In this document: positions 27,480 to 52,906 of the stretch, piece after piece
Layout of the letters: the number at the start of each line of letters is the position of its first letter
Position numbering within the stretch: the stretch's first letter is position 1
Assembly: GCA_016783745.1 (NCBI GenBank)
Contig: JADHVZ010000008.1
Span: 1-57,715 of the forward strand
DNA: 57,715 bases
Direction: 5' to 3'
Source of the DNA: Candidatus Omnitrophota bacterium
GTDB taxonomy: Bacteria; Omnitrophota; Gorgyraeia; JAHIPI01
Program-made: the position numbers and the translations under genes
Notes under the pieces: model-generated
The model's input: only the letters and a program-made list of their open reading frames with translations
What the model was told of the DNA's origin: nothing
The model's database searches: none

Positions 27480-27612
27480 ATCCGGTTCATATCTCGTAGC
27501 AAATATCCAGCCAAAATCCGCAGTTTATGCCTCTTAACCTCTCTAGTTAACGCGTTATTGCGCTATTTCTGCCGTTATTGATCGACGGTTTTATTGTTGA
27601 TTTATCTCTTAA

Positions 27613-29082: not shown

Positions 29083-29718
29083 GTGAAAATAACATGTTCC
29101 GATTGTAAAACAACCTTAGGTGAACAAACGCCATTTGATGATCCTTTTAAAATCTATGCCAGATGCGTTTCCTGTCTTGCCAAACAAAAAGAAAAAGCCT
29201 CAAGATTTACACCTGAACCTAAACCTGGCCAGAAAAAAGAAATCACATTAGAAAACGGCATGAAAGGTGTTCTCTGGGTTCCGGAGAGTAAAGAAGAGAA
29301 GCTTTCCCTAGGGGAATTAGCGGTTTCGGGGAAGAGGTGTTTTTGCTCAAAATACGAACGAGTGAAATGTCAGAATTATCTAGCGGGTTTAAAAGATGAA
29401 GACGTGGACGTTTCCTTTCTTCATTCTATGACCTGTAAGATAGAAACTTCTTCAAAAAGTCGCAAGAAAAAGCAGGATCCTCCTAAGATAGAAGAACCAA
29501 AAAAGGACGATAGCATTAACTATAATTGTACCATAAGAGCGCCTAAGCATTATGTTCAACTCATTTTTGATGATATGGCTGAGCGGATGGATAGAGTATT
29601 AGAGATACTGGCAGAAGCATCACTTAAAGCATGTAAAGAAGATCGCCAAAAAGCTAACACAAACGATGCCCTATCGCCTATGTCCGGGTCGAAAGAGCTG
29701 GGCAATCCTATCTCTTAG
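29083..29718 (+). CDS. Hypothetical protein with an N-terminal CxxC...CxxC zinc-ribbon-like motif and a Lys-rich centre
   Basis: Only ORF evidence, a GTG start after AAAGGA, and Cys pairs CSDC/CVSC. No recognisable family. Confidence 0.5.
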   Translation: MKITCSDCKTTLGEQTPFDDPFKIYARCVSCLAKQKEKASRFTPEPKPGQKKEITLENGMKGVLWVPESKEEKLSLGELAVSGKRCFCSKYERVKCQNYLAGLKDEDVDVSFLHSMTCKIETSSKSRKKKQDPPKIEEPKKDDSINYNCTIRAPKHYVQLIFDDMAERMDRVLEILAEASLKACKEDRQKANTNDALSPMSGSKELGNPIS

Positions 29719-29776
29719 CCACTTAAATAGCCTACCCAAGAAAGCGGCCAGTCGTTTCGCTTAGAACGAGAAATAC

Positions 29777-29805
29777 TTGACAGACATAGGGTAATGTAGT
29801 ATAAT
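29777..29805 (+). promoter_or_regulatory. Consensus promoter TTGACA-N17-TATAAT
   Basis: TTGACA at 29777-29782 and TATAAT at 29800-29805, upstream of the HTH-DUF4065 gene. Confidence 0.65.
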
Positions 29806-29864
29806 CTTACAGGACTTGTAATTTAATCGAACATATGGTATATTTATTAGGAGGGGGTGAGGAT

Positions 29865-30626
29865 ATGATCACGAAGCATAAGCTCGCAAAGAGAATAAAG
29901 AAGATGAGGGAAGACAGGGAGCTTTCGCAGGAAGACCTTGCCATAAGGTTAGGGGTACCGCGGCCATCCATATCCCACCTTGAATCAGGGCAGCGAGATA
30001 TAAGCAGCATCGAACTGGCGAAGCTGGCAAATATCTTCGAAATATCGGTCGATGATCTACTGAGTCCGGATTTAGAGGAAAAAGAATGCCGAGACATGAA
30101 CAAGGGTCAAAAAATGCCTAAATTTAACAAGAAAAAGTTTAAGGAAGTGCTTCTTTACATACTGGACAGTTGCGGCGCCAAGGCGAATGTCGGGGAGACC
30201 GTACTTTATAAGCTTTTGTATTTCTCGGACTTCAATTACTATGAGTTATTTGAGGATTATTTGACAGGCGCAGCTTACAGGAAAATAAGCTATGGCCCGG
30301 CTCCCTGTGATTTTCAGGAGATAGTCGGGGAGATGATAGAAGAAGGTGATTTAAAAAAAGTGGTAGCGGATTATTACGGTAAGCCCCAGAAGAAGTATCT
30401 ACCTCTTGTAGATGCCGATATCAACGTATGGAATTGGAGCGCTCGTGAAAAAGAAGTCATCGATAAAGTCATAGAAAGATTCTCTTCCATGGATGCTACT
30501 ACAATAAGCGAGTATTCCCATGATGATATCCCCTGGGAGGTAACCAAGGACAAAGAGATAATAGATTACGATACGGTCTTTTATAGAAAACCGCCTTTTT
30601 CGGTAAGAGCTTACCCCGAGGAATGA
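29865..30626 (+). CDS. XRE-family HTH fused to a DUF4065 (Panacea/SocA-like) domain; putative antitoxin
   Basis: HTH segment LSQEDLAIRLGV.RPSISHLESG, then the KLLYFSDF....L.G..Y....YGP motif typical of DUF4065. Start placed at the ATG at 29865 behind AGGAGGGGG; the track ORF starts at 29835. Confidence 0.8.
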   Translation: MITKHKLAKRIKKMREDRELSQEDLAIRLGVPRPSISHLESGQRDISSIELAKLANIFEISVDDLLSPDLEEKECRDMNKGQKMPKFNKKKFKEVLLYILDSCGAKANVGETVLYKLLYFSDFNYYELFEDYLTGAAYRKISYGPAPCDFQEIVGEMIEEGDLKKVVADYYGKPQKKYLPLVDADINVWNWSAREKEVIDKVIERFSSMDATTISEYSHDDIPWEVTKDKEIIDYDTVFYRKPPFSVRAYPEE

Positions 30627-30630
30627 CATC

Positions 30631-30975
30631 ATGGAATTTACAACTCTGCATGAATTCGACTCGGAATTCAAGAAGCTCTTCAAGAAATTCCGCAGTTTAA
30701 AAGAAGACCTCGATGTCCTGAAATCCGTGTTATTAAAATATCCACGCGGATATGAGCCCCTCATATATCGTATACCGGGTCTTGGCGTAGAAACCGAGAT
30801 ATATAAGGTTAAGAATTTCAGGTGCAAAGCATTACAGAGGGGATCACGCAGCGGAATTAGGGTTATATACGCTTACCTTGAGGCAGAGGGAAAGATAGAA
30901 TTTGTGGAAATATACTATAAGGAGAAGGACACCGTAGATTGCAATAAAGATAGGATCCGGAAATATTATAAATAG
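30631..30975 (+). CDS. RelE/ParE-superfamily-like toxin (putative)
   Basis: 114 aa, 4 nt after the antitoxin gene. F..FKKL.K....L and GIRVIYAY....I.FVEIYYK resemble RelE/HigB-type toxins. Assignment is by eye only. Confidence 0.6.
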   Translation: MEFTTLHEFDSEFKKLFKKFRSLKEDLDVLKSVLLKYPRGYEPLIYRIPGLGVETEIYKVKNFRCKALQRGSRSGIRVIYAYLEAEGKIEFVEIYYKEKDTVDCNKDRIRKYYK

Positions 30976-31263: not shown

Positions 31264-31605
31264 ATGGACAAAAATACAGAGGAGAAAATGTTTCAGATGC
31301 ATGCCGAAGTCTGTAAAAGCATGGCTAGCCCCACCCGCTTAAAAGTTATGAATCTATTGCGTGAAGGAGAAAAATCCGTTGAGGAGTTAAGAGAGCGACT
31401 ACGATTACCTAAAGCAAATCTTTCCCAACACCTGAGCATATTGCGCCAACGCAGGATTGTTTCTACCCGCAGATCCGGTTTAAATATTTACTACAAAGTT
31501 ACTAATCCAAAGATGATTAAGGCATGCGATATTTTACGAGAGGTGCTTTTAGAACAGCTTCAAGAAGGCCAGAAATTAGTGAGAGGAATAACTAAGAAAA
31601 AGTAA
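31264..31605 (+). CDS. ArsR/SmtB-family transcriptional regulator
   Basis: Winged-HTH segment R.KV..LL.EGE.SV.EL......ANLSQHL..L. Confidence 0.88.
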   Translation: MDKNTEEKMFQMHAEVCKSMASPTRLKVMNLLREGEKSVEELRERLRLPKANLSQHLSILRQRRIVSTRRSGLNIYYKVTNPKMIKACDILREVLLEQLQEGQKLVRGITKKK

Positions 31606-31627
31606 TTTAAAAAAGAAGAGGTCTAAA

Positions 31628-33928
31628 ATGCTTAGCAAATTAACTGAAATAGTTACTAGATTTCCAAAAACAACTATAGTTGTCGTACTTATCGCTACTA
31701 TATTTTTTGCTATCCAATTTCCCAAGATCAAAATAGATACTGACCCAGAGAATATGCTTGAACAAAGACAGCCTGATAGAGTTTTCTATAATAATGTTAA
31801 AAAAGAATTTGGAATACGCGACCTTTTGGTTGTAGGTATTGTTGATGAAGATGGGATTTTTAATTCAGATACATTAAAAAGAATCGCTAAAGTAACGGAT
31901 GATATTCTTAAAATTAAGGGAGTAATTATTGAGGATGTAGTGAGTCTCGGCACATCGGATAATGTCACCTCAGAAGAGGGCGCTCTTACTGTAAAACGTT
32001 TCATGGAAAAAATTCCCCAGGCTCCTCAAGAGATAGAACAGCTGAAGAAAGAGCTTTTTGGCAATCCTTTCTTTGTAGATAAAATTGTCTCTCGCGATGG
32101 CAAAGCCACATCTATTTATATCCCTATTGAGAAAAAAGACCAGAGTTATCGCATATCTAAAGAGATTGAAAGGATTCTCAAAAAAGAACTAACACCGGAA
32201 CAGAAGTATTACTTAGCCGGTTTACCTGTTGCTGAAGATACATTTGGCCATGAAATGTTTGTCCAGATGGGTATAACTGCGCCTTTAGCCGGATTCTTTA
32301 TTATGATTCTTCTCTTTCTTATTTTTAGAAGAGGCATGTTTATTGTCCCACCAATGATGGATGCAATGTTAGCGGTATGCTGGGCAATGGGACTTCTAAT
32401 TGGCTTAGGTTTTACCGTTCACATTATGAGCTCGATGATCCCTATATTCCTTATGCCAATTGCCCTATTGGATGACATTCATATATTAAGTGATTTCTTC
32501 GATCGTTATCCCTCTATTAAGGATAGAAGAAAGACAATAATAGCCACAATGAAAGACCTTTATCGACCAATGTTCTTTACTTCTATTACCTCAGCAGTGG
32601 GCTTTGGCTCATTGGCTTTAGCCGACATTCCTCCTGTAAGAATATTTGGCCTTTTTGTTGCCTTCGGCATAATGGCTGCTTGGTTATTTTCTCATACAAT
32701 AGTCCCTGCTATAATAATGCTTATGAGTGAAGAAAAGTTAACAGCTTTTTTAGAGAGAAGACATAATAAGAGATCGTTTTTAGACGGAGCACTTAAAGGA
32801 CTTGGTAATTTTGCGTTTGCGAAAAGTAAGATTATTCTTCTAGGAGCAGTAATAGTTTTGGCTATAGGGATAATTGGAGTTAAGCAAATCCATATTAACG
32901 ATAATCCAGTAAAATGGTTTAAGCCGAAACACAAGATTAGAATCGCGGATAGCGCTATGAATAAATTCTTCGGCGGGACATACATGGCTTATTTAGTGGC
33001 GGAAGGAGATGAGGAAGATGCAATCAAAAGGCCCGAGGTAATGTCTTATATAGATAAACTACAAAACCATCTTGAAACCTTAAAGATTGTTGGTAAAACT
33101 TCTTCAATAGCAGATATTGTAAAAAGGATAAATTATGTTCTTCACGATGAGAACAAATCATTTGATTCTGTTCCTGGAAAGCAAGATGAGATTGGCCAAT
33201 ATCTTTTCTTGTTCTCAATGACTGGAGATCCAAATGACCTGGATAACTTTATCGATTACGGGTCACAAAAAGCAAATATATGGGTTCAAATGAAAGGCGG
33301 AGAAAATATCCAGATGCGCAAGGTTGAAGAGTCTACCTATGCATTTACAGAGACAAACCCACCCCCTAGAGGCATAACCATTAAATGGTCCGGTCTTACC
33401 TATATCAACAAAGTCTGGCAGAACCTTATGGTGTTCGGAATGCTTAAGGCAATATTGGGAAGCTTTTTTGTAGTATTTTTGCTTATGATCCTTGCATTTC
33501 GCTCTATAAAACTGGGTGTAATTTCAATGCTCCCCTTGAGTTTTGCTATCATTTCTTCCTATGGCCTTGTAGGATTCCTAGGAAAAGATTATGATATGCC
33601 TATTGCAGTGTGCTCATCTTTAAGTTTAGGCATGGCCATTGATTTTGCTATACATTTCTTACAGCGTTTTAAAGCAGGATATAAAAAATATAATGATATT
33701 GAAGCAACCAATATCTATATGTTCCAAGAACCTGCAAAGGCTATAACTCGAAACGCCATCGTGATAACATTTGGTTTTTTACCCTTATTAGCATCTACGC
33801 TTACACCTTATATAACCGTAGGGACATTTTTTGCTACTTTAATGATGTTCAGTTTCTTGACCACTCTAGTATTATTTCCAGCCATTATGAGGTTATGGGG
33901 CAAAGCATTATTTGCAAAGGAGGCTTGA
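31628..33928 (+). CDS. MMPL/RND-superfamily exporter (HpnN-like architecture)
   Basis: 766 aa with two blocks of about 6 TM helices, each preceded by a large periplasmic loop. Typical MMPL layout. Confidence 0.8.
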   Translation: MLSKLTEIVTRFPKTTIVVVLIATIFFAIQFPKIKIDTDPENMLEQRQPDRVFYNNVKKEFGIRDLLVVGIVDEDGIFNSDTLKRIAKVTDDILKIKGVIIEDVVSLGTSDNVTSEEGALTVKRFMEKIPQAPQEIEQLKKELFGNPFFVDKIVSRDGKATSIYIPIEKKDQSYRISKEIERILKKELTPEQKYYLAGLPVAEDTFGHEMFVQMGITAPLAGFFIMILLFLIFRRGMFIVPPMMDAMLAVCWAMGLLIGLGFTVHIMSSMIPIFLMPIALLDDIHILSDFFDRYPSIKDRRKTIIATMKDLYRPMFFTSITSAVGFGSLALADIPPVRIFGLFVAFGIMAAWLFSHTIVPAIIMLMSEEKLTAFLERRHNKRSFLDGALKGLGNFAFAKSKIILLGAVIVLAIGIIGVKQIHINDNPVKWFKPKHKIRIADSAMNKFFGGTYMAYLVAEGDEEDAIKRPEVMSYIDKLQNHLETLKIVGKTSSIADIVKRINYVLHDENKSFDSVPGKQDEIGQYLFLFSMTGDPNDLDNFIDYGSQKANIWVQMKGGENIQMRKVEESTYAFTETNPPPRGITIKWSGLTYINKVWQNLMVFGMLKAILGSFFVVFLLMILAFRSIKLGVISMLPLSFAIISSYGLVGFLGKDYDMPIAVCSSLSLGMAIDFAIHFLQRFKAGYKKYNDIEATNIYMFQEPAKAITRNAIVITFGFLPLLASTLTPYITVGTFFATLMMFSFLTTLVLFPAIMRLWGKALFAKEA

Positions 33929-33932
33929 TAGA

Positions 33933-34742
33933 ATGAAGACACTCAAAATATCGTTAGTTATTAGTTTATTATCAGCTCTATATCTCACCCCAGCAGTTCT
34001 CTTTGCAGAGGATAACGTAACTGCTGAAGAAATTGTTATTAAATCAAGGCTTACCTTTTATTATGCCGGTGATGATATGCGGGCGAAGGTACTGATGGAA
34101 CTTATAAATAAAGATGGGAAAAAAAGGGTAAGAGAGCTTACTATGTTAAGAAAGGATTATGAAGAAGGAGGGGATCAAAAGTATTTTATGTATTTTCATA
34201 AGCCAGCTGATGTAAGAGATACTACTTTTATGGTCTATAAGTACCACGATAGAGACGATGACCGTTGGCTATTCATTCCTGCAATTAATTTGGTAAAGAG
34301 GATTGCCGCCAATGATAAATATTCAAGCTTTGTAGGAAGCGATTTTACTTATGAAGACATCTCTGGCAGAAAGCCTGAAGAAGACACTCATACTTTATCA
34401 AGGAAAGATAAGTTGAACGGTAAAAATTGCTTTGTTATTGAAAGTATTCCTAAAGAAACATCAGAATACACAAAAAGGATTTCCTGGATTGATGAAGCAA
34501 ATTTCTTACCCTTAAAAGAAGAATTTTACGATAAACAGGATGAACTCTACCGTCAGTTTGAGGCACAAGAAGTAAAAGATATGGATGGTATTCTGACAAT
34601 AACCAAAAGAATAATGAAGAATGTCAAAACTGGCCATAGGACAGAAGCAGCCTTTCAGGAGGTTGAATATAATTTAGGGGTAGAAGATAACGTTTTTTCT
34701 GAGCGATACTTAAGGAGGCCACCTTTACAATGGATAAGGTGA
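33933..34742 (+). CDS. Outer-membrane lipoprotein-sorting (LolA-like) protein
   Basis: Signal peptide and the D.W.FIPA...V.RI.......SF.GSDFTYEDI motif of the LolA-like family. Start moved to the ATG at 33933 behind AAGGAGG. Confidence 0.78.
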   Translation: MKTLKISLVISLLSALYLTPAVLFAEDNVTAEEIVIKSRLTFYYAGDDMRAKVLMELINKDGKKRVRELTMLRKDYEEGGDQKYFMYFHKPADVRDTTFMVYKYHDRDDDRWLFIPAINLVKRIAANDKYSSFVGSDFTYEDISGRKPEEDTHTLSRKDKLNGKNCFVIESIPKETSEYTKRISWIDEANFLPLKEEFYDKQDELYRQFEAQEVKDMDGILTITKRIMKNVKTGHRTEAAFQEVEYNLGVEDNVFSERYLRRPPLQWIR

Positions 34743-35989
34743 GGATTGTATTGTGCATGCTCATTTTATTAGGATTCGTTCCTTTGTCCTTCGCGGAGGA
34801 GTTATCACTACATGGATTAGTACAGACAAATTATTCAATAAGGATTGCTGACGATAACCCACAAGGTGCAAAGCAAGATAATTTAATTTTAGGAGAAGAA
34901 AGAATACAGTTAAAAACCTCGTTCTTTCCATCAAAATCAAAGATTGGTTTTTTTGTTAAAAGTGATTTTTTTCATGATTGGGTAGCCGAAAGATGGGCCT
35001 TTGACTTTCGAGAAGGTTATATCGATTATAATCTGGATGATTTCGGCCTTAGGATTGGAAGGCAGATTATAACATGGGGCGTGGGTGATTTGCTTTTCGT
35101 TAACGATATCTTCCCCAAAGATTGGGAGGCCTTCTATTCCGGCAGGCCTTTAGAATACCTAAAGATAGGCGTAGATAGCGTGAAATTAGACATTTACTCT
35201 GATATTGTATCTATTGAGGCTATTGCCATACCGTTTTTTGAAACAGATGATTTACCCTCAACGGGTAGATTTCATTCCTTTGACCCTTACCCTACAATCG
35301 GGAATAGAGAATTTGATAAACCCGGCACAAATTTTAAAAATACTGAATATGCGCTAAGGCTCTATCGATATATCGGTGATTTTGACGTCTCGGCTTATGC
35401 TTACAAAGGTTTTTTTAGATCGCCTGGTATGAAAGCCGATAATTTCAACTCCCCTTCCACTGTTTCACATTTCTTTACAAAGTTAGCTGCATATGGAGCA
35501 AGCGTTCAAAAAAGTGCTTTAGGTGGAGTTGTAAGCGCTGAATACGGCTATTACGACTCTTTAGATGATCGGGGCGGTAAAAATCCGGGCATTGACAATT
35601 CTCAGTCAAAGTTCTTAATAGGATATCAAAAGGCATTCCCCGATGACCTTACCGCTGGAGTCCAATATTATGGCGAGCTGATGCATAGATACAGCGAGTA
35701 TGAAGATAATCTGCCTTTTGCATTTTCGAAGAAAAAAGAACTCCATCAATATATTGCTTTGAGGCTTACGAAGTTACTTAAATACCAGACATTGAAACTT
35801 TCATTATTCACTTTCTACAGCCCGGATGATGAGGATATTTTAATAATACCCGAGGTTAGCTATAATTTTACCGACAATCTACAGGCAATACTGGGTGCAA
35901 ACATTTTTGAGGGAAGTAATAAAGATACCACCCTGGGGCAACATGATGAAAATGACAATATCTATGTAACGATAAGATATAGTTTTTAG
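34730..35989 (+). CDS. Putative outer-membrane beta-barrel protein
   Basis: Signal peptide, alternating-hydrophobicity strands rich in Y/G/F, and a C-terminal RYSF. Overlaps the upstream gene by 13 nt. Confidence 0.6.
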   Translation: MDKVRIVLCMLILLGFVPLSFAEELSLHGLVQTNYSIRIADDNPQGAKQDNLILGEERIQLKTSFFPSKSKIGFFVKSDFFHDWVAERWAFDFREGYIDYNLDDFGLRIGRQIITWGVGDLLFVNDIFPKDWEAFYSGRPLEYLKIGVDSVKLDIYSDIVSIEAIAIPFFETDDLPSTGRFHSFDPYPTIGNREFDKPGTNFKNTEYALRLYRYIGDFDVSAYAYKGFFRSPGMKADNFNSPSTVSHFFTKLAAYGASVQKSALGGVVSAEYGYYDSLDDRGGKNPGIDNSQSKFLIGYQKAFPDDLTAGVQYYGELMHRYSEYEDNLPFAFSKKKELHQYIALRLTKLLKYQTLKLSLFTFYSPDDEDILIIPEVSYNFTDNLQAILGANIFEGSNKDTTLGQHDENDNIYVTIRYSF

Positions 35990-36020
35990 TCATAAGCGAT
36001 AAAGGATAGGATTATTTAGT

Positions 36021-37184
36021 ATGAAGAAACGTAAATTAGATAGAAATATTTTTACGCTTGGTTTAGTAAGTCTTTTTACTGATATCTCAAGCCAGATGAT
36101 ATATCCTTTGCTTCCAATATTCTTATCCAGTGTCTTGGGTATGGGGATAGTATTTATCGGCTTACTTGAAGGGATAGCTGAAGCTACTGCCAGCATATTG
36201 AAAGTATTTTCCGGGTGGTATTCCGATAGGTTGAAGAAGCGTAAGCCTATTATCTTCCTAGGATATAGCTTATCAACTCTGGGCAAGCCTTTTCTTTATC
36301 TGGCTACTTTAGGCTGGCATGTATTGATAGTTCGATTCATTGATAGAGTTGGTAAAGGAATACGCACATCCCCCAGAGATGCCTTGGTAGCAGATTCAAG
36401 CCTGCCTGAACAAAGAGGAAAGGCGTTTGGGATTCAACGCGCTATGGATAGAATAGGTGCCTTCTTGGGTCCCTTGATTGCTTTTGCTATTTTACCACTA
36501 CTAAACAATAATCTGCGATTAGTCTTTCTACTTGCCTTTTTCCCTGCACTTATTGCTGTACTTATCATAATATTTTTTCTCAAAGATAAACCACATGTTC
36601 GTGATCCATCAAAAGAGCTAAAGTCCTTTTCTTTAAAAGACCTGAACAGGGATTTTAAAGTATTTATCTTTATTCTCGCTATATTTACTTTAGGAAATTC
36701 TAGTGATGCATTTTTAATCTTAAGAGCAAAAGATTTAGGTGTGAAGGTAGTATTCATACCGATTCTTTGGCTTATGTATAATTTTATAAGTTCTGCCACA
36801 TCTATACCGTTAGGCAGTTTTTCGGATAAGCTCGGGAGAAGAAAAACAACTTTACTAGGTTTTTTTGTTTATGGGATTGTTTACCTTGGTTTTGCTTTTT
36901 CAAATTCTCAAAGCTCAGTCTGGTTTTTTATGGGTCTTTACGGTGTCCATTATGGTTTAAGTGAAGGTGTGCTTCGGGCATATGTAGCGGATTTGGTAGA
37001 AGATAAATCTATCTTAGCTACCTCATATGGAATCTATCATACGGTTGTAGGCCTATGCATGTTTCCAGCGAGTCTGATCATGGGAATTCTTTGGCAATCT
37101 TTCGGGCCTCATGTAGCGTTTTCATTTGGCGCCGCACTTTCACTTGTAGCAGCCGTACTTTTGGCTATCTTCATTAGGAGGTGA
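36021..37184 (+). CDS. MFS transporter
   Basis: About 12 TM segments with a D-R-x-G-K/R-R-like loop (DRLKKRKP, SDKLGRRK). Confidence 0.85.
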   Translation: MKKRKLDRNIFTLGLVSLFTDISSQMIYPLLPIFLSSVLGMGIVFIGLLEGIAEATASILKVFSGWYSDRLKKRKPIIFLGYSLSTLGKPFLYLATLGWHVLIVRFIDRVGKGIRTSPRDALVADSSLPEQRGKAFGIQRAMDRIGAFLGPLIAFAILPLLNNNLRLVFLLAFFPALIAVLIIIFFLKDKPHVRDPSKELKSFSLKDLNRDFKVFIFILAIFTLGNSSDAFLILRAKDLGVKVVFIPILWLMYNFISSATSIPLGSFSDKLGRRKTTLLGFFVYGIVYLGFAFSNSQSSVWFFMGLYGVHYGLSEGVLRAYVADLVEDKSILATSYGIYHTVVGLCMFPASLIMGILWQSFGPHVAFSFGAALSLVAAVLLAIFIRR

Positions 37185-37387
37185 TAAAAATGACACTAGA
37201 GAGAGTCTTAAGAGGCATTGCAGGTTTTTTTATTCTGACTAGCCTTATTCTGGCCTATTATGTAAGCCCAAAGTGGCTGTGGTTTACTGCTTTTGTCGGA
37301 TTTAATCTCTTTCAATCCGCATTTACAAATTGGTGCCCTATGATGTGGATTTTAAGAAAATTAGGAATAAAATTGACCCAAACATAG
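37181..37387 (+). CDS. DUF2892 (YgaP-like) small membrane protein
   Basis: R...G...L.......W..F.G.NL.QS.FT.WCP motif. Overlaps the MFS stop. Confidence 0.75.
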   Translation: MIKMTLERVLRGIAGFFILTSLILAYYVSPKWLWFTAFVGFNLFQSAFTNWCPMMWILRKLGIKLTQT

Positions 37388-37606
37388 CCAAGGATATTCA
37401 GGAAAATGTTGGATGGCATGAGAACGCTTTTGCACGTCGTTACTCGCATTGCCAAGACACTCCTAGCAAAAAGTGGCAATCTGGATGTCATCACGAATGT
37501 ATGTGGCAATAAAGCTTTTTAACAGAAAAGCCTATAAAAGCCCTCCGTAATCAATTCATTGCAGAGGGTTCTGTTTGGCTATATAATGCTGTAAAGGGGT
37601 TTTAAG

Positions 37607-38659
37607 TTGAATATTGTTACTACCATAATTGAATTAGCAAAGGAAATATGGCACACCGTAGATGAGGCGGCCATTTATATACTTTTTGGCATCTTTGTTG
37701 CTGGCTTAATCCAAATGTTTGTAGACAAAGCCAAAATCGCAAAACACCTAGGCGGGCGAGGAGCTAAATCTGTCTTGTTAGCGGCTATGTGCGGTATTCC
37801 ATTGCCTCTTTGCTCTTGCGGAGTATTACCTACTGCTATTTCTTTAAGGAAAAATGGCGCTTCTAAAGGGGCAACACTATCTTTCTTAATTTCCACACCA
37901 GAGTCTGGCGTAGATTCTATAGCTATATCTTATGCGTTGCTGGATCCAATAATGACTGTGTTTCGGCCAATCGCTGCATTTATCACTGCTATTGTTGCTG
38001 GAACCTTTGAAAATATCTTTGGCAAGAAAGAACAAGAAGTAGCATCATCAAAAGCAAGCACTTGCGTTAGTTGCGGAGAGGCAGACAAGCAGCACTCTCA
38101 TAGTTTTATGCAGAAGTTCAAATATGGTATGCGTTATGCGTTTGTGGATTTATTAGGTGATATATCAAAGTGGCTTATGCTTGGCATCATTATTGCAGGT
38201 ATTATTTCTTATTTTGTCCCGCAAACACTAATTCAATACTATCTTGGTCGTGGTTGGCAAGCAATGTTTTTGATGTTAATTGTGGGCATACCTCTTTATA
38301 TATGCGCAACTGCCTCAACCCCTATAGCGGCTGCTTTAATTCTCAAAGGAATGAGTCCAGGCGTTGCCTTAGTATTCCTTTTGGTAGGCCCGGCTACTAA
38401 TATTGCCGGGATTCTATCGGTAGGCAGATTTTTAGGCCGGAGATCCGTAATTATCTATCTACTTTCTATTTCAATCTGTGCCATTGGGTTAGGATTATTA
38501 CTTAATCAGATATATTCTTTGTCAGGAATTAACATAAGAGCCACGATTGGCAAGGCTGGTGAAGTAATACCGCATTACATCAAAACGCTCTCTTCGATAA
38601 TTCTAGTTGTTTTAATGGTTAATGGCATTCGACTAAGGCAGAAGGAGTATGAAAAATGA
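37607..38659 (+). CDS. Predicted permease of the ArsP/DUF318 type
   Basis: CGIPLPLCSCGVLP...SFLISTPE motif with an internal duplication of TM blocks. TTG start. Confidence 0.78.
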   Translation: MNIVTTIIELAKEIWHTVDEAAIYILFGIFVAGLIQMFVDKAKIAKHLGGRGAKSVLLAAMCGIPLPLCSCGVLPTAISLRKNGASKGATLSFLISTPESGVDSIAISYALLDPIMTVFRPIAAFITAIVAGTFENIFGKKEQEVASSKASTCVSCGEADKQHSHSFMQKFKYGMRYAFVDLLGDISKWLMLGIIIAGIISYFVPQTLIQYYLGRGWQAMFLMLIVGIPLYICATASTPIAAALILKGMSPGVALVFLLVGPATNIAGILSVGRFLGRRSVIIYLLSISICAIGLGLLLNQIYSLSGINIRATIGKAGEVIPHYIKTLSSIILVVLMVNGIRLRQKEYEK

Positions 38660-39432
38660 AGGCAAACAACAAGTCTCTTAATGAAATTGGTGCCGAAGAC
38701 ATAAAAGAAGCCGTAAGAGAGAAATACAGCAAAGTAGCGAAAAATCCATGTGCTACATTCAATTTTCCCGTAGGCAAAAAATTTGCCTTAAAAGTAGGAT
38801 ATCCTAAAGAGGTACTTGATAAGCTACCACCATCCATGTATGAGTCTTTTACAGGCGCTAACAATCCCCAACCTTTTATAGAACTAAAAGAAGGGGAGAG
38901 GGTATTGGATTTAGGATGCGGCGCAGGATTAGATCTTTATTTTTATGCCAAAGCTGTGGGCCAAGAGGGTAAAGTATACGGGTTAGATATTTCACAGGAT
39001 ATGGTTAACAAAACAACCAGCAATATGAATGCAATGGGAATAAAGAATGCAGAGATAAAATGTGGCCATTCAGATAGCCTGCCATTTAAGGATAATTTCT
39101 TTGATGTTGTAGCCTCAAATGGTATTTATAACCTTGCGCCGGATAAGGAAAAGGTTATGAGTGAGGTTTTTCGTGTATTAAAACTCGGGGGAAGGACAGT
39201 TTTTTCTGAGATCGTTCTAAAAGAAGCATTACCTGAAAACATCAGGAAAAATATGGATGACTGGTTTAAATGTATAGGGGGCGCCTTGTCTGAAAAAAAC
39301 TTTCTTGGCTTAATGGAGAAGGTAGGATTTAAAAACATAGAGGTTATTTCAAAAATCAAAAATGCCCGGACAGGCCATAAATTTGCCATTTGCGCAAACA
39401 TAAAAGCTTATAAAACTACTACGGAAGATTGA
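38656..39432 (+). CDS. ArsM-like class I SAM-dependent methyltransferase
   Basis: VLDLGCGAGLD SAM motif and the ArsM-like N-terminal VREKYSKVA and C-terminal CIGGA segments. Overlaps the permease stop (ATGA). Confidence 0.8.
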   Translation: MKANNKSLNEIGAEDIKEAVREKYSKVAKNPCATFNFPVGKKFALKVGYPKEVLDKLPPSMYESFTGANNPQPFIELKEGERVLDLGCGAGLDLYFYAKAVGQEGKVYGLDISQDMVNKTTSNMNAMGIKNAEIKCGHSDSLPFKDNFFDVVASNGIYNLAPDKEKVMSEVFRVLKLGGRTVFSEIVLKEALPENIRKNMDDWFKCIGGALSEKNFLGLMEKVGFKNIEVISKIKNARTGHKFAICANIKAYKTTTED

Positions 39433-39435
39433 TTA

Positions 39436-39933
39436 ATGAAAAAGAAAGTAGGCTGGATTAGTGCAATAGGAGGCATAATTTCCGCGGTATTAGGAGTTAT
39501 AGCGAGTTGTATGCTTATACCCCTTTGTGGCGGCGTTTGTATAGCAGGCCCGTTAGTTGCTATTTTCGGTATCGGAATCGCCGGATTTCTTCATAAATAT
39601 AACATTTGGTTTACTATTTTCGGCAGTCTATTTTTCATCCTTGGTCTTTTTTTAATAATCAAAAATAGGAAATATTGCACCTTAGGTAATATTGAAAACC
39701 ATTTAAGGCGCCTAAAAAAATGGTATAAGGAAGAGAAATGCAGAACGTGCGATTGTTTTCAAGCTGCCCTTACTCAGTTTGAATTAGACGGAGGGGACAA
39801 AGTAAAGAATAAACTAAACAATATGAAAGTTTTTAAGGACAGAATGCATAGTTGCTTAGGATGCGACCCCTGCCCACCGGGTGAGATATTTTCTTCATAC
39901 CTAAAGACTAAGAAGAAATTGACTAATTCTTGA
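39436..39933 (+). CDS. Membrane protein (3 TM) with a Cys-rich cytoplasmic or periplasmic tail
   Basis: Hydrophobic N-terminal 75 aa containing Cys residues, then CRTCDC and HSCLGCDPCPP motifs. No family recognised. Confidence 0.6.
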   Translation: MKKKVGWISAIGGIISAVLGVIASCMLIPLCGGVCIAGPLVAIFGIGIAGFLHKYNIWFTIFGSLFFILGLFLIIKNRKYCTLGNIENHLRRLKKWYKEEKCRTCDCFQAALTQFELDGGDKVKNKLNNMKVFKDRMHSCLGCDPCPPGEIFSSYLKTKKKLTNS

Positions 39934-47103: not shown

Positions 47104-47478
47104 ATGCGTATTAAAAAAGCCCGCCAGATGCTGAAGAGTTTTGCCGATGATACCCGGCTCAGAGTCATAAATCTTTTGAGCAAGCGGAGACTGAACGTAA
47201 CTGAGCTATGCGAGATTCTAGGTGCTAGTCAATCAAGCCTTTCAAAACATCTTGCGCGTTTACGATTAACAGGAGTGGTGAACGATCAAAGAGAAGGGCT
47301 TAACGTATATTACAGCTTGAGAATTCCGGATGACAAGGCACATAAAGAGCTTATTGATGCCATTACCGGAGGGCTGTCAGAACTGGAAGCTTTTAAAAGG
47401 GATTTTGAAAAACTAAAAGGGCTTAAGAAAACAAGGGTAAATGGGGAAAAACTAAACATGGAGGTGAGAAATGTATAG
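47104..47478 (+). CDS. ArsR/SmtB-family transcriptional regulator
   Basis: Winged-HTH segment D.TRLRV.NLL....L.V.EL..IL...QS.LSKHL. AAGGAGG RBS. Confidence 0.88.
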   Translation: MRIKKARQMLKSFADDTRLRVINLLSKRRLNVTELCEILGASQSSLSKHLARLRLTGVVNDQREGLNVYYSLRIPDDKAHKELIDAITGGLSELEAFKRDFEKLKGLKKTRVNGEKLNMEVRNV

Positions 47479-47863
47479 GGGATTATTTGTAATCATCCTG
47501 AGTGCAATGGTAATATCGTTACCATACGCGACCTTTGCTCAGGAAGAAGATGTTGAATATGGCTATGGAACTGTGGTTAAGGTGAATGAGTCAAAAAAAG
47601 AAATTGTTGTCAGCGAGTATGATTATGACAGCGATACAGAGATTAATATCACCTACTCTGTCGATCCCAATGCAAAGTTTGAAGATGTTGATTCGATAGG
47701 AGAAATTAAAGTAGGGGACGGAATCGGCATTGATTATATGGAAGACGAAACAGGCAAAAAAATCGCCAAAGTTATTAGTATCTATAAAGCGGAACCCGAA
47801 TTTGAGACTACAGAGGATATACCCGAGACGCCGGATCTAGACATGCCAGACATAGACTATTAA
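47471..47863 (+). CDS. Small secreted acidic protein, unknown function
   Basis: Signal peptide ending ATFAQ and an Asp/Glu-rich mature part. Overlaps the ArsR stop by 8 nt. Confidence 0.6.
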   Translation: MYRGLFVIILSAMVISLPYATFAQEEDVEYGYGTVVKVNESKKEIVVSEYDYDSDTEINITYSVDPNAKFEDVDSIGEIKVGDGIGIDYMEDETGKKIAKVISIYKAEPEFETTEDIPETPDLDMPDIDY

Positions 47864-48118
47864 ATATCCTACTTTTTACCATTCGTTTCTTATACCTATG
47901 CCCTTAGGCCATCAGGACAAAAGAAAACCGCTGATACATTTACCCTTTATCGGTCATATTCTATGAAAAAAGAAAAACTATCTCAAGGTTTGAGAAAATA
48001 TATACGACGGCAAAAGTTAGCTATCAAGAGGATGGCAAATAATAAAGGTGAAGAGCGCCGATTGATAAGAGAACTTTTAAACAGGTTTTACGCAACTAAA
48101 TAAAAGGAGGTGGTTTAC

Positions 48119-48250
48119 ATGTGCTGTGAATCATGTCCAGAATATGAAGAATGCGCTGCTAAGAACAAGTTAAAAGATGACTGTTGCAAAAGATGCCCCG
48201 ACCACGACTCTTGTTTTGCCGCAGATGAAGATAATGAGGAGGGCTATTAG
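48119..48250 (+). CDS. Unannotated 43-aa Cys-rich microprotein with two CCxxCPxxxxC motifs and an acidic C-terminal tail
   Basis: Hand translation: MCCESCPEYEECAAKNKLKDDCCKRCPDHDSCFAADEDNEEGY. AAGGAGGTG lies 6 nt before the ATG. The ORF ends 29 nt before the KamA-type gene. It is below the length cutoff of the ORF track. Confidence 0.6.
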   Translation: MCCESCPEYEECAAKNKLKDDCCKRCPDHDSCFAADEDNEEGY

Positions 48251-48279
48251 TAAAAGACCTTAGGAGGGTAAAGGTAAAG

Positions 48280-49404
48280 ATGGGCACAGAAATAGGAAAA
48301 GTGCTGTTAGAAACGGATGAACCGCCGGGAGGTAGTTTAGAGTGGAGTGATTGGAGATGGCAGTTAAGAAATACCGTATCAGATATTGATAAGCTTGCAA
48401 AGCTGTTTTTATTGAACGCAGCAGAGTCAGAAGATTTAAAGAGGATCACCGCAAAGTACCCGTTCACCATTACCCCGTATTATCTCTCGCTTATGGATAA
48501 AGATGACCCCCAGGACCCTATCCGACTGCAATGCCTGCCGTCACAGGAGGAAGAGAAGCTATATTTCGGGGTCCAGGACGATCCCCTTGATGAAGAGGCG
48601 GATTCGGTGTTGCCGGGGCTTGTGCACCGTTATCCTGACAGGGTATTGGTCACCCTTACTAATATGTGCCCCGTATATTGCAGGCATTGTACAAGGAAAA
48701 GGGACTGGTGCGGGAGCAGGTGGGCCAGAAAGCCCCAGGAGCTGGCATCGATATATCAGTATATCTCCCAGCATAAAGAAGTGAGAGATGTTATACTTTC
48801 AGGCGGCGACCCGCTTATCCTGTCCAACGAAAGGATCGAGGCGGTCTTAAAAAGCTTAAGAGACATCCCTCATGTAGAGATCATCAGGATCGGCACGCGC
48901 TGTCCCGTGGTACTGCCGCAGAGAATAGATGACGGGCTCGTCTCTGTGTTAAGGAAATACAGGCCCATATGGGTGAATACGCATTTTAATCATCCACGCG
49001 AAATAACCAAAGAGTCAAGCATGGCGTGCGACAGGATGGTCTCATCCGGCATACCCGTTAATAATCAATCCGTGCTTCTGAAGGGGGTAAACGATAGCAC
49101 AGAGACCATGACAAAGTTGTGTCAGGGGCTGTTGAGGATCAGCGTGAGGCCGTACTATCTTTTTCAATGCGACCCTGTAAGCGGGACAGGCCACCTGAGG
49201 ACATCCATAGAAAAGGGCCTGGAAATCATCAAGGGTATGAGGGGCTTTACATCGGGGCTAGCGGTCCCGAATTTTGTTGTGGACGGCATGGAAGGCCATG
49301 GCAAGGTCCCGCTCCAGCCGGATTACCTGGTGGCATTGGAAAAGGATCACGCGCTTTTAAGGAGCTACAAAGGAGAAGTTTTCAGGTATTACAACCCGGA
49401 ATGA
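48280..49404 (+). CDS. KamA-family radical SAM aminomutase (lysine 2,3-aminomutase-like)
   Basis: CPVYCRHCTRK cluster motif, SGGDPL, and NQSVLLKGVND. Overall colinearity with KAM as I remember it. Confidence 0.88.
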   Translation: MGTEIGKVLLETDEPPGGSLEWSDWRWQLRNTVSDIDKLAKLFLLNAAESEDLKRITAKYPFTITPYYLSLMDKDDPQDPIRLQCLPSQEEEKLYFGVQDDPLDEEADSVLPGLVHRYPDRVLVTLTNMCPVYCRHCTRKRDWCGSRWARKPQELASIYQYISQHKEVRDVILSGGDPLILSNERIEAVLKSLRDIPHVEIIRIGTRCPVVLPQRIDDGLVSVLRKYRPIWVNTHFNHPREITKESSMACDRMVSSGIPVNNQSVLLKGVNDSTETMTKLCQGLLRISVRPYYLFQCDPVSGTGHLRTSIEKGLEIIKGMRGFTSGLAVPNFVVDGMEGHGKVPLQPDYLVALEKDHALLRSYKGEVFRYYNPE

Positions 49405-49410
49405 TTATAA

Positions 49411-50436
49411 ATGAAAATAGGTATAACGTACAATTTAAAGGATGAATTATCTCCCGATGCAATAATAGACACTGAATCGTGCGAAGAATTTGATTCGCCT
49501 CTTACAATAGACGCCATATGCGGGGTTTTTGAGAAAAACGGCCACGAAATAGTGAAATTGGGCTGTGGCATCAAGATTATCGAACGCCTCAGAGGCGAAA
49601 AGGTCGATTTTGTGTTTAATATTGCAGAAGGGTGTCGCGGGAGGAATAGAGAATCCCATACACCCTCCATTTTAGAGATGCTTGATATCCCCTATTCCGG
49701 ATCAGATCCCCTGACGCTGGGCCTTACGCTCGATAAGGTTGTGACAAAAAAAATAGCTTTTCAGGCGGGGATCCCCACGCCGCGCTACTTGGTGATAAAG
49801 ACATCGGAAGACCTCTTGTTTTTAGAAAATAAATTAGTCTATCCTCTTATCACTAAGCCTGCATGGGAAGGCTCGAGTAAAGGGATATACAATTCGTCAA
49901 AAGTATTTAACAGGCAGGAACTGGAGAAAAGCGCGGAGCTTCTTTTTAAAAAATATCCGGATCAACCTCTATTGGCCGAGGAGTATGTTGAAGGAAGGGA
50001 GATCACGGCAGGCGTCATAGGCAACGAACCCCCGCGGGTTTTGGGACTTATGGAGATAGTGAATAGAGCCGGCCCCGAAGAGGATATCTTTTATTCCTTG
50101 GATACCAAAAGGGACTGGAAGAAATTGGTTGACTATGCATCGCCGCCGGATATAGAGCAGTTGATTCAAAAGCACATAAGCCATTATGCCCTTATGGCCT
50201 TTAAAGAGTTTGGATGTAAGGATGTCGCCCGCATCGATTTCAAAATATCAAAAAATAATAAAATATTCATGCTGGAGGTGAACCCGTTACCGGGCCTGTC
50301 TCCGGAATACGCGGATCTGGTAATAATGGCACGGAAAAACGGCATAAAGTACGACGACCTCATTTTATCGATTTTTAATCACGCACTTTTGCGATATAGA
50401 AGCGGTAAGGGAGATTTAAGCTATGAAACAGTATGA
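49411..50436 (+). CDS. D-alanine--D-alanine ligase-family ATP-grasp enzyme
   Basis: Ddl-like layout: N-terminal pre-ATP-grasp domain, K.....AGIPTP, P...KP..EGSS.GI, and LEVN..PGL. Confidence 0.8.
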   Translation: MKIGITYNLKDELSPDAIIDTESCEEFDSPLTIDAICGVFEKNGHEIVKLGCGIKIIERLRGEKVDFVFNIAEGCRGRNRESHTPSILEMLDIPYSGSDPLTLGLTLDKVVTKKIAFQAGIPTPRYLVIKTSEDLLFLENKLVYPLITKPAWEGSSKGIYNSSKVFNRQELEKSAELLFKKYPDQPLLAEEYVEGREITAGVIGNEPPRVLGLMEIVNRAGPEEDIFYSLDTKRDWKKLVDYASPPDIEQLIQKHISHYALMAFKEFGCKDVARIDFKISKNNKIFMLEVNPLPGLSPEYADLVIMARKNGIKYDDLILSIFNHALLRYRSGKGDLSYETV

Positions 50437-51412
50437 TTTTGCCTTAGCATGGAACAGTGGGAGTAAAGAGAACTTTGTTAAATGGACGAGGCGAGAGTGT
50501 ACTCTTCGGGGTTTGAAATTTATGCTCATAGTCGAGAAGAACGTAGAGAATGTCATTAAAGATCTTGAAAAGGGAAAACTAAAAATTAACTTTCTCCTTG
50601 ATAATGAAGCAGACTATGACGATAAGAATAACCTGTTCGCTAGGTTATGCTACGCTGTCAAAGACGCAAATGGATATGTGGTCTGTGATCCTGATGACGC
50701 TCGGCAAGCCGCGAACAAGGCTATTACACATTATGATTTAGTAAGAGCGAAGATACCGGTTCCATACACTATTGTTGTAAGAAATTGGGAACCCGATGAC
50801 TTTGAACTAAATAAAGAAGAAGTAAAGCAGTTGAGGGTACCTTTTATCATAAAGCCGGCCTCCGGATTCGGGCAAAAAGGGGTCGTTAAGAACGCAAACG
50901 GATCTATAGTGGAGATTGCTCAGGCGCGCCATTTTAATAAAGGCGACGACTTCTTGCTGCAGGAAAAGATAGAACCCCTTATGATCGGCGATAAACAAGC
51001 GTGGTTCAGGATATATTTTATATTTGGCGAGATCATACCGTGCTGGTGGAATACCGAGACGGGATATTATACACAGGTGACGCTCAGAGAGATGTACGCC
51101 TTCAGGCTCTTGCCTCTGGCGCGCATTATATCGGAGATAGCCAGGATCACCAATATGGAATTCTTCTCGTCCGAGATCGCGCTCACCGGCAAGGGAAAAG
51201 AGAGGCGTTTTGTTGCAATCGATTATGTGAATGACCAGCCCGAGCTTTGCGTCCGCTCCGAAAAGGTCGGAGGGGGTCCGGTTCCGGAAGTCATCAACCA
51301 CATTGCGGAACGGATTGTAGAGATCGTCTGGCGCGCCTCACGGAACATTCCAGTAGGAATGTTCCGCTCGCTCTGGCTCGCGAAAGCCAAGCTCGAAGAC
51401 GAAAGTATATAA
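50423..51412 (+). CDS. Divergent ATP-grasp-fold ligase
   Basis: IPVPYT, PFIIKPASGFGQKGV, LLQEKIEP and AIDYVNDQP segments in ATP-grasp order. Overlaps the upstream gene by 14 nt. Confidence 0.65.
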   Translation: MKQYDFALAWNSGSKENFVKWTRRECTLRGLKFMLIVEKNVENVIKDLEKGKLKINFLLDNEADYDDKNNLFARLCYAVKDANGYVVCDPDDARQAANKAITHYDLVRAKIPVPYTIVVRNWEPDDFELNKEEVKQLRVPFIIKPASGFGQKGVVKNANGSIVEIAQARHFNKGDDFLLQEKIEPLMIGDKQAWFRIYFIFGEIIPCWWNTETGYYTQVTLREMYAFRLLPLARIISEIARITNMEFFSSEIALTGKGKERRFVAIDYVNDQPELCVRSEKVGGGPVPEVINHIAERIVEIVWRASRNIPVGMFRSLWLAKAKLEDESI

Positions 51413-51459
51413 CACATGATTAGAAAACCATTAAGCTTAGGGGAATAATTTTCGGGAAG

Positions 51460-51672
51460 ATGATCAAGTGTATAGACAGGTCTGGAAAGAAATACAGTAT
51501 AAGACAGGTGCTGAACGATATAATAGGCCACTTAAAAATTCCTATTATATATGGATTTCCTTCTGGGCATAGGATACCAGGTGATATTAACGTTACCCTG
51601 CCATTTGGAACATCTGTAACAATAGATGCAGATAAAGCAAGGGTTATAGTAAACGAAGGTGGAGTAAGCTGA
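51460..51672 (+). pseudogene. C-terminal fragment of an S66 LD-carboxypeptidase (MccF/LdcA family)
   Basis: IPIIYGFPSGH....NVTLPFGTSVTIDA motif, the catalytic His region. Only 70 codons, where the family is about 300 aa. Confidence 0.6.
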
Positions 51673-51691: not shown

Positions 51692-52906
51692 ATGCTAAGA
51701 AGTATAGGAGATTACATTGATATTGTCGGAGCGGAGACTATTTCAAAGATTTACAAGAAGGCTAATAAATTATATGGGAAACGCATAGCAAATGTGAATG
51801 CGACGTTCCTGGGAGGAGGTGTGGCAGAAATACTTGGCAGGATGGTGCCACTCATGAATGAGATCGGCCTAGATGCCGAATGGCGCACCATCCATGGAAG
51901 CCCCGCTTTTTTCGACATAACCAAGAACTTCCATAATGCGATGCAGGGAGGGGCGATAGAGATCACAGACCACATGAGATCGCACTATATGAATATCAAT
52001 GAGGAGTATGCCAAGTTTACGCATATGAATGTCTATGACTGCATTATCGTGCACGATCCTCAACCGCTCCCGCTTATAAAATTTTGTGGAAAACAACAGC
52101 CCTGGATCTGGCGATGCCATATCGATATCACCAATCCGAATCCGGAACTCTGGGATTTTCTGAAAAGGTTTATGATACAGTATGACACTATAATCGTCTC
52201 GAGCGAGAAATACAAAAAGTCGGATCTTCCGGTTTCGCAGCGGGTCATTCCGCCGGCGATCGACCCTTTGTCGTTAAAGAATCAAGAGCTTTCAGAAGAC
52301 GAGATTATGAAGTATATCAGAGAATCCGATATCCCGACCGACAAGCCTATAATTACGCAGGTATCGAGGATGGATTCCTGGAAAGACCCTGAAGGCGTGC
52401 TCGAAGTCTTTAAACTGGTAAAAGAGAAGGTGGACTGCAGGCTTCTCTATTGTTACAACCTGGCCACCGATGACCCCGAAGGGATAAAGATATACGATAA
52501 GGTATACACAAAAGCTAAAAAATTTGCGGAAAACAGGGATGTTTTGTTCGTAGTAGGAAATAACGAACTCCTTGTAAACGCAATTCAGAGATTTTCAACC
52601 GTGATTATTCAGAAATCAACAAGAGAAGGTTTCGGCCTTGTCATTGCGGAAGCTATGTGGAAAGGAAAACCCGTTGTCGCCGGCAATGTAGGTGGTATAC
52701 CAAGTCAAATTAAAGACGGTAAAACAGGTTTCTTGGTCGATCCCCATGATTATAAAGCTTGCGCCGATAGGATCGTAAGGTTTCTTCAGGACCAAAAACT
52801 AGCTCAAGAAATGGGAAGGCGGGCCAAAGAATTTGTCAGAGAGAGATTTCTTACCACACGGCTGATATCAGATTATCTGGATTTGTTATACGATGTATTA
52901 AAATAA
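51692..52906 (+). CDS. treT: TreT-like trehalose glycosyltransferring synthase (GT4)
   Basis: The N-terminus (NATFLGGGVAEIL...VPLM...G....W..I.G...FF..TK.FHNA.QG) closely parallels archaeal and Thermotoga TreT as I recall it. C-terminal GT-B E.FG motif. Confidence 0.75.
   Translation: MLRSIGDYIDIVGAETISKIYKKANKLYGKRIANVNATFLGGGVAEILGRMVPLMNEIGLDAEWRTIHGSPAFFDITKNFHNAMQGGAIEITDHMRSHYMNINEEYAKFTHMNVYDCIIVHDPQPLPLIKFCGKQQPWIWRCHIDITNPNPELWDFLKRFMIQYDTIIVSSEKYKKSDLPVSQRVIPPAIDPLSLKNQELSEDEIMKYIRESDIPTDKPIITQVSRMDSWKDPEGVLEVFKLVKEKVDCRLLYCYNLATDDPEGIKIYDKVYTKAKKFAENRDVLFVVGNNELLVNAIQRFSTVIIQKSTREGFGLVIAEAMWKGKPVVAGNVGGIPSQIKDGKTGFLVDPHDYKACADRIVRFLQDQKLAQEMGRRAKEFVRERFLTTRLISDYLDLLYDVLK

Follow-up and report, generated by a model that had tools for sequence, protein, structure and literature searches.

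A conserved gene module of a KamA-family aminomutase, two ATP-grasp ligases and an S66 peptidase in Omnitrophota, with candidate acidic-tailed carrier proteins

The 57,715-nt window analysed here, from contig JADHVZ010000008.1 of a Candidatus Omnitrophota bacterium and the reference for all coordinates given without a locus number, contains a tightly packed cluster of forward-strand genes at 47104-51672. Its enzymatic core consists of a KamA-family radical S-adenosylmethionine (SAM) and pyridoxal phosphate (PLP) 2,3-aminomutase (48280..49404) and two ATP-grasp ligases, one of the D-alanine-D-alanine ligase (Ddl) family that we call G1 (49411..50436) and one of an unnamed family that we call G2 (50423..51412), followed by the decayed remnant of an S66 (LD-carboxypeptidase family) peptidase (51460..51672). 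Upstream of KamA lies a micro open reading frame (micro-ORF, 48119..48250) for an acidic-tailed protein of 43 amino acids with eight cysteines. The KamA gene starts 29 nt past the micro-ORF stop, 6 nt separate KamA from G1, and G1 and G2 overlap by 14 nt. These spacings, and a strong ribosome-binding site before the micro-ORF, had been reported in an initial annotation made from the bare sequence, and the coordinates that we re-derived agree with it. Overlooked at that stage were four features of the cluster: the S66 remnant, an ArsR-family regulator, a signal-peptide protein (c5) and a basic 46-aa ORF.

Here, we describe these genes and their relatives, propose that the core is a conserved module that probably makes and trims a beta-lysine-containing peptide, as far as sequence comparison can tell, and weigh where that peptide might be built.

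Using a G2 profile we collected 79 loci from GTDB genomes (cited below by L numbers) and clustered their genes. An S66 gene stands beside G2 in 37 of them; G1 is present in 32 and KamA in 21, and KamA is next to G1 in 20 of its 21 loci. In the remaining locus, L066, KamA-G1 is encoded on the opposite strand ~2 kb upstream; in every locus where KamA is part of the module, its neighbour is G1. Two gene orders recur, KamA-G1-G2-S66 and KamA-G1-S66-G2, and further arrangements comprise S66-G2 alone and G1-G2-S66 without KamA. The loci are spread over Omnitrophota, Margulisiibacteriota and unclassified or other metagenome-assembled genomes. Since membership is kept while order changes, across phyla, KamA, G1, G2 and S66 form a conserved module and a functional unit, which extends the earlier view of KamA and the two ligases as one operon. 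A full-text literature search, with one amidoligase survey outside its reach, returned no paper linking KamA, ATP-grasp ligases, S66 or LysW; within that literature the gene set is undescribed, the G2 enzyme family is unnamed and the microproteins are unannotated. In or beside the module, three loci also encode a 304-315-aa protein without a Pfam or NCBIfam family (L006 6993-7940, L020 2044-2958, L026 630-1544), in which a D-x-H-x-x-N segment resembles, by eye only, the catalytic loop of the kinase fold.

The 374-aa KamA protein carries the motifs CPVYCRHCTRK, FQCD and VVDG and aligns end to end with the lysine 2,3-aminomutase of Clostridium subterminale (PDB 2A5H, E=8e-120). In this alignment the aspartates of FQCD and VVDG fall on D293 and D330 and the PLP lysine on K337, which bears out the alignment to the lysine-binding pair proposed in the initial annotation. 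We take D293 and D330 to be the residues that hold the epsilon-ammonium group of lysine, and R134 to be the arginine for its alpha-carboxylate. All of these positions, together with C125, C129 and C132, are kept in the window protein and in 20/20 G1-linked orthologues. The zinc ligands C268, C375, C377 and C380 are absent from the window protein and from all 20 linked orthologues; in the window KamA, serine takes the place of C268, and the chain of 374 residues stops short of both the CxCxxC motif and the C-terminal oligomerisation domain, making it a short form without the zinc site.

KamA scores 469 bits against the NCBIfam model for AblA (below the equivalog cut-off of 525), 344 bits against the KamA subfamily model (above the cut-off of 199) and 257 bits against EpmB (below the cut-off of 369), so it is nearer to AblA than to EpmB; grouping with EpmB had been named as telling against the initial proposal. 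With the aspartate pair kept, AblA closest and EpmB far, the best inference is a basic substrate, most simply lysine, and the earlier preference for such a substrate is strengthened by the fixation of the pair across the linked orthologues. Neither of the usual partners, EpmA or the GNAT-family AblB, was seen among the window ORFs examined (a subset of all ORFs), again as first noted, and a search that covered the window and the collected loci, rather than whole genomes, turned up neither EpmA nor efp.

G1 matches Dala_Dala_lig_C at 4e-36, and its 171 bits against the Ddl subfamily model lie below the cut-off of 243. In Escherichia coli DdlB numbering it keeps K97, K144, E180, E187, K215, R255, D257, E270 and N272, the ATP, Mg and catalytic residues of that enzyme, in 25-28 of 28 members. 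The D-Ala site is changed: H63E in 28/28, E68R in 27/28, Y216R in 25/28 and L282D in 27/28. In the NCBI annotation pipeline PGAP, G1 receives no name beyond ATP-grasp domain-containing protein. Four recharged pocket residues beside an intact catalytic set indicate, at the level of sequence, that G1 is a ligase with a different, more charged pocket and not a cell-wall Ddl, and with scores below the NCBIfam cut-offs the housekeeping assignment that might have undone the initial proposal falls away. As a separate observation, a PP-loop gene resembling GMP_synt_C/NAD_synthase lies directly upstream of G1 in L016, L105, L111 and L113; in L105 and L111 it precedes a solitary G1-like gene without G2 or KamA.

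The 329-aa start of G2 used here, which creates the overlap with G1, is backed by full-length coverage in >100 homologues; the source gene call of 296 aa starts 33 codons late (the omitted stretch being 50423-50521). G2 matches no Pfam or NCBIfam family, scoring 21.8 bits against LysX (cut-off 275.6), 23.8 against RimK (143.4) and 23.6 against MptN (350), and a G2 profile found nothing significant among PDB sequences. We found 666 homologues at 90% clustering, with relatives in 391 GTDB species. Its AlphaFold2 (AF2) model has a predicted local distance difference test score (pLDDT) of 84.8. G2 is, on these comparisons and its predicted generic ATP-grasp fold, a family of its own. Members of clade A, to which the window G2 belongs, end in a conserved ..WLAKAxxEDESI tail (window 51395-51412) that is predicted to be disordered (pLDDT <50), and the endings of the other G2 clades are conserved as well but differ from it. 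Docking or self-modification is a possible role for this tail. In L045, G2 seemed to be fused into a 955-aa protein, but an N-run produced this appearance, and the gene downstream is glutaminyl-tRNA synthetase.

The place beside G2 that G1 otherwise fills is often taken, in the S66-G2 clade, by a PurD-like ATP-grasp with GARS_A/GARS_C matches (L049 1437-2729, L054 820-2115, L066 4077-4604, L070 4709-6001). It scores 119 bits against the 288-bit purD cut-off. A second, different ligase beside G2 thus seems to be a recurring requirement.

The S66 remnant in the window matches Peptidase_S66C at 1e-6 and comprises the C-terminal 70 aa; it keeps the FPSGH histidine motif, lacks the GYSD nucleophile and does not contain both domains of the family. 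The relatives with S66 beside G2 in 37 loci have a full-length protein (~315 aa) in which GYSD and FPSGH are both kept in 29/31 copies, the exceptions being L080, where the histidine motif was not found, and L032, where the gene is split. These full-length copies reach 128 bits against LdcA, below the cut-off of 378. Because the identical truncation occurs in independent contigs of the same species and only the last 70 aa are left, the lineage has lost the peptidase and, by its sequence, is a natural S66 knock-out.

The micro-ORF starts with ATG at 48119, stops at 48248-48250 and encodes MCCESCPEYEECAAKNKLKDDCCKRCPDHDSCFAADEDNEEGY (43 aa, 8 Cys), with AAGGAGGTG positioned 8 nt ahead of the ATG; no homologue uses the GTG that lies in frame at 48110. 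It matches no Pfam or NCBIfam family. We found 16 divergent homologues (39-59% identity) in which all eight cysteines are invariant, following the pattern MCC-x2-C-[PA]-x-Y-x2-C ... CC-x2-C-x5-C and then an acidic tail, which is present in all members and varies in length and sequence. Cysteine codons are mixed (TGT 71 vs TGC 57); this interchange at invariant positions points to selection on the protein, not the DNA, and the micro-ORF is, by these sequence criteria, a real gene. Searches with hidden Markov models and with the pattern located it in three other species, again ahead of KamA (L006, L008, L011), and one metagenome scan added 14 further contigs. In 13/14 of these contigs c5 lies directly 5' of the micro-ORF, and KamA follows it in only 2/14. 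The expectation that the micro-ORF would be conserved beside homologous clusters therefore holds in part: the family is real, and most KamA clusters are without it. We also considered whether the micro-ORF might be the split-off zinc-binding C-terminus of KamA and rejected this, as C268 too is missing from all 20 short KamAs, the majority of which are without a nearby micro-ORF.

In sister loci a different small protein occupies this position. Two genes upstream of KamA in L106 lies a 77-aa zinc-ribbon protein (ZR) with an acidic tail. Its copies (8/8) match Pfam PF21344 Zn_ribbon_LysW (best E 9e-12) and NCBIfam lysW (TIGR01206, best E 7e-9; 24 bits, below the 53-bit cut-off), and the ZR profile matches the LysW structures 3WWL and 5K2M at ~5e-10. 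Judged by these matches, ZR is a true LysW-family member. The order ZR-c19-KamA-G1-S66-G2, in which c19 belongs with c5 to one family, is found in L044, L047 and L106, and the order ArsR-ZR-c19-G1-G2-S66 in L115; L060 has a two-gene ZR-G2 unit, L066 has S66-G2-ZR, and L070 has c5-ZR-PurD-like-G2. The L115 G2 is 64% identical to the window G2 and shares its C-terminal motif, so an orthologous module has a LysW-like gene exactly in the slot of the micro-ORF, which in the window lies between ArsR/c5 and the ligase operon, as ZR does in sister loci. An interim view that the micro-ORF was unrelated to the ligases, and the carrier idea refuted, was revised after ZR was found.

The cluster begins with the ArsR-family helix-turn-helix (HTH) regulator (47104..47478; Pfam HTH_5, 5e-13). 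In 16 loci the module has a homologue of this gene (cluster c4) on its upstream side, and in L037 and L115 such a homologue adjoins ZR/c19; by eye, the protein has one cysteine (in an ELCEILG segment) and no obvious metal-site motif. Next comes c5 (47471..47863), with a signal peptide, a small beta domain and an acidic C-terminal tail ending in DIDY; its DUF5666 match (E=0.006) is below the cut-off. Proteins of the c5/c19 family, small beta-domain proteins with Sec signals, acidic tails and a weak DUF5666 match, occur in ~30 loci and adjoin the module in ~18, in four arrangements, pairing with either the 8-Cys micro-ORF or the LysW-like zinc ribbon. Three unrelated acidic-tailed families (c5/c19, the micro-ORF and ZR) are thus found at the module, each pair adjacent without the third, and c5 may be a further target of, or partner to, the product. 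Between c5 and the micro-ORF lies the basic 46-aa ORF (47963..48103, pI 11.3), which is conserved in relatives (..LSxGLRKYIRRQK..; same position in L006, L008, L011, L015, L092 and L094) and matches no Pfam or NCBIfam family.

Downstream of the S66 remnant, a TreT-type trehalose synthase (51692..52906; TreT_GT1 1.7e-57, Glycos_transf_1) introduces a second set of neighbours. TreT is found in the window, L010 and L020, and TreT, GH15, GH65, HAD, GT4, MscS or MscL genes flank the module in L006, L010, L013, L015, L016, L020, L110 and L113; in L110 and L113 a trehalase-like GH15, GH65 with HAD and GT4, MscS and MscL come directly after S66. The cluster sits in an ArsR-headed osmotic-stress neighbourhood. 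Promoter and terminator scans gave counts not above shuffled expectation, so no operon boundaries were drawn from them. A riboswitch search 5' of kamA, in the window and six loci, gave no Rfam match at the gathering score, and permissive scans gave nothing credible.

Elsewhere the window is housekeeping in content, with ribosomal proteins, lpx genes, BamA, GlnA and seryl-tRNA synthetase. At 27072-30975 a tRNA gene is followed first by a minus-strand recombinase zinc-ribbon fragment and then by an XRE-HTH/Panacea (SocA-like) antitoxin gene, which has a small partner; an integrated element with a toxin-antitoxin pair may have left this remnant. At 31264-39933, ~8 kb upstream of the operon, a second ArsR-family regulator and an MMPL/RND-type transporter are followed by an MFS transporter, an ArsP-type permease and a SAM methyltransferase, a gene set suggestive of metal or arsenic resistance.

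To account for the module together with its small acidic-tailed neighbours, we propose that a beta-lysine unit is built on a carrier protein. KamA would convert free L-lysine to beta-lysine, and G1, with Glu, Arg, Arg and Asp newly placed in its pocket, would condense beta-lysine with a second amino acid. G2 would then attach the G1 product to a small metal-binding carrier, through a carboxylate of its acidic C-terminal tail; the carrier would be the LysW-family zinc ribbon in sister lineages and the 8-Cys microprotein in the same slot here. The S66 serine carboxypeptidase would release or trim the added unit, a step presumably lost in this genome. We assign this carrier-involving model a probability of roughly 0.4. 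That the module acts on an acidic-tailed small protein at all approaches an even chance; that the micro-ORF of the window is this protein is a more doubtful step. The most specific version, an undescribed beta-amino-acid carrier pathway in which G2 and a re-specified G1 build the unit on the microprotein tail, two unrelated microprotein families serve as interchangeable carriers and S66 releases the product, is unlikely in its entirety.

The precedent is LysW, a carrier whose family members are loaded by the ATP-grasp ligases LysX/ArgX and, to our knowledge, have no other role than that of ATP-grasp substrate. The module resembles the LysW/LysX and ArgW/ArgX systems, including those in amino-group carrier protein (AmCP, LysW family) secondary-metabolite clusters, in placing a small metal-binding acidic-tailed protein beside ATP-grasp ligases. 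In the AmCP pathways studied so far, substrates are tethered to the carrier C-terminus (PMC11726168). Sister loci carry a LysW-family protein, the predicted G2 fold matches ArgX/LysX-LysW complexes, and the S66 carboxypeptidase could take the releasing role of LysK. Unlike those systems, the module has a G2 that scores 22 bits against a LysX cut-off of 276 and so is no LysX orthologue, and its carrier gene is absent from most loci; KamA, a Ddl-like ligase and an S66 peptidase would be new partners for such a system. The LysW/LysX analogy drawn in the initial annotation is a live hypothesis, neither shown nor refuted: it gains from the real LysW-family ZR at sister loci, and it is weakened by the window micro-ORF itself, which has no detectable homology to LysW.

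Genomic distribution supports the tie between microproteins and module. When ~0.9 Mb of loci were scanned by properties alone, for short ORFs that combine an acidic tail with two CxxC motifs, five were found, each of them <=160 nt from a module gene or c19. Cys-rich acidic-tailed microproteins were present in 7/16 KamA-positive vs 2/50 KamA-negative loci (Fisher p=4e-4, a value that overstates the support because the loci are phylogenetically related). Median pI is 8.6 for G2 and 9.6 for S66, with G1, KamA and the PurD-like ligase acidic; against a basic background proteome (median pI 9.0) these values are only weakly informative on carrier binding.

A series of observations, besides the relatedness of the loci, weighs against a carrier. 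The micro-ORF adjoins KamA in only 4/16 clusters with enough upstream sequence, and its constant partner is c5, not KamA; c5-micro pairs occur without KamA, G1 or G2 within 1.3-5 kb in L092, L094, L095, L100, L101 and L103. In a flank with a 2-kb cut-off (up to 6 kb were fetched), 9/16 assessable KamA clusters and ~85% of G2 loci have no microprotein, the complete genome CP070837 being among the microprotein-free loci. Canonical LysW has a conserved C-terminal Glu; the last residue of ZR varies among W, E, S, F and D, and that of the micro family among Y, E, Q, I, V, N and L. The micro-ORF has no detectable homology to the ZR profile (hhalign probability 1.4%), and its AF2 model is helical, not a ribbon, at low confidence (pLDDT 67) with a disordered tail. 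We therefore rejected the micro-ORF as a LysW homologue, the equal CxxC-x16-CxxC spacing not being backed by the helical model; a fold search with that model, which is too weak to interpret, gave no PDB match. On the enzyme side, Foldseek places Ddl, the ArgX/LysX-LysW complexes and RimK all at ~1e-11 and 10-15% identity to G2, and the kinase, reductase and aminotransferase known from AmCP pathways are all missing. The conservation of D293 and D330 implies that KamA uses free lysine, and the characterised Ddl-family and S66 enzymes known to us all act on small molecules. The proposal that the ligases act on the microprotein tail is partly supported, with the LysW-family ZR in the same slot and the enrichment at KamA loci on its side.

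Several of these points fit equally a free small molecule, the strongest alternative, which we regard as nearly as likely as the carrier model. KamA would make beta-lysine, and G1 and G2 would build from it a soluble beta-lysyl di- or tripeptide that serves as a charge-balanced compatible solute, replacing N-epsilon-acetyl-beta-lysine, with S66 breaking it down when osmolarity falls; ArsR, c5 and the micro-ORF/ZR would be co-regulated stress genes (e.g. metal- or cation-binding) and not substrates. The free lysine implied by the KamA aspartates, the small substrates generally known for Ddl-family and S66 enzymes, the module loci without a nearby microprotein, which are the majority, and the c5-micro pairs outside the module all suit this scheme, and E63, R68, R216 and D282 of G1 fit charged amino-acid substrates. 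An ATP-grasp-made dipeptide osmolyte has a precedent in N-acetylglutaminylglutamine amide (NAGGN), made by Ngg. There is also a likeness to the AblA/AblB route to N-epsilon-acetyl-beta-lysine, as KamA is closest to AblA, the neighbourhood is of osmolyte type and an amine would be masked by amide formation; the module differs from it in having two ATP-dependent ligases and a peptidase instead of a GNAT acetyltransferase, and a short, zinc-site-free KamA below the AblA cut-off. The recurrence of TreT, GH15, GH65, MscS and MscL in related loci lends weight to the osmolyte locus that the initial annotation had offered as its alternative, although these neighbours are confined to related Omnitrophota and could be inherited synteny. 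What a free peptide leaves unexplained is that G2 has a LysW-family protein as its immediate neighbour in five or more arrangements, one of them a two-gene unit. Moreover, G2 and S66 are widespread without KamA or G1, which argues that the core pair does not depend on beta-lysine. The carrier and osmolyte readings could both be true if the osmolyte is built on the carrier.

Cell-wall peptide metabolism would recruit G1 as a variant Ddl, S66 as an LdcA-type enzyme and G2 as a stem or cross-bridge ligase, with beta-lysine in the peptidoglycan. G1 and full-length S66 do belong to the Ddl and LdcA superfamilies with catalytic residues kept, and ATP-grasp cross-bridge ligases exist, e.g. D-aspartate ligase. 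We nevertheless consider this improbable: both proteins fall below their family cut-offs (171 vs 243 bits and 128 vs 378 bits), almost every G1 has substitutions at the D-Ala-site residues, PGAP itself withholds the Ddl name, no locus contains mur, ddl-ftsQ or racemase genes, and this lineage lost S66 while retaining the ligases.

RimK-type modification of ribosomal protein S6 was rejected, as the window S6 ends in ..VIRMEK without an acidic tail. The broader likeness to RimK/S6 lies in a G2 that could extend an acidic C-terminus, a similar fold and a peptidase encoded alongside; G2 differs in scoring 24 bits against a cut-off of 143, its candidate targets are dedicated microproteins, and a beta-amino-acid-forming enzyme is attached. 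Least probable is beta-lysylation of the elongation factor P (EF-P) type, with KamA as EpmB, an ATP-grasp in place of EpmA and EF-P or another translation factor as target, for although the short, zinc-site-free architecture is that of EpmB and no EpmA was seen among the window ORFs examined, KamA scores 469 bits for AblA against 257 for EpmB (cut-off 369), no efp gene occurs in any of ~100 loci, G2 and S66 are widespread without KamA, and a carboxypeptidase has no role in the scheme.

If a carrier is involved, the module would extend LysW-type carrier chemistry beyond the biosynthesis of lysine, arginine and (2S,6R)-diamino-(5R,7)-dihydroxyheptanoic acid (DADH) to beta-amino acids; it would also present non-homologous microproteins converging on a carrier role and explain what a class of unannotated micro-ORFs does. 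If the product is instead a free peptide, Omnitrophota and Margulisiibacteriota, phyla with almost no experimental biochemistry, would have a new ATP-dependent route to beta-lysine-based compatible solutes. Either outcome is within reach of co-expression of four or five small genes in E. coli followed by mass spectrometry.

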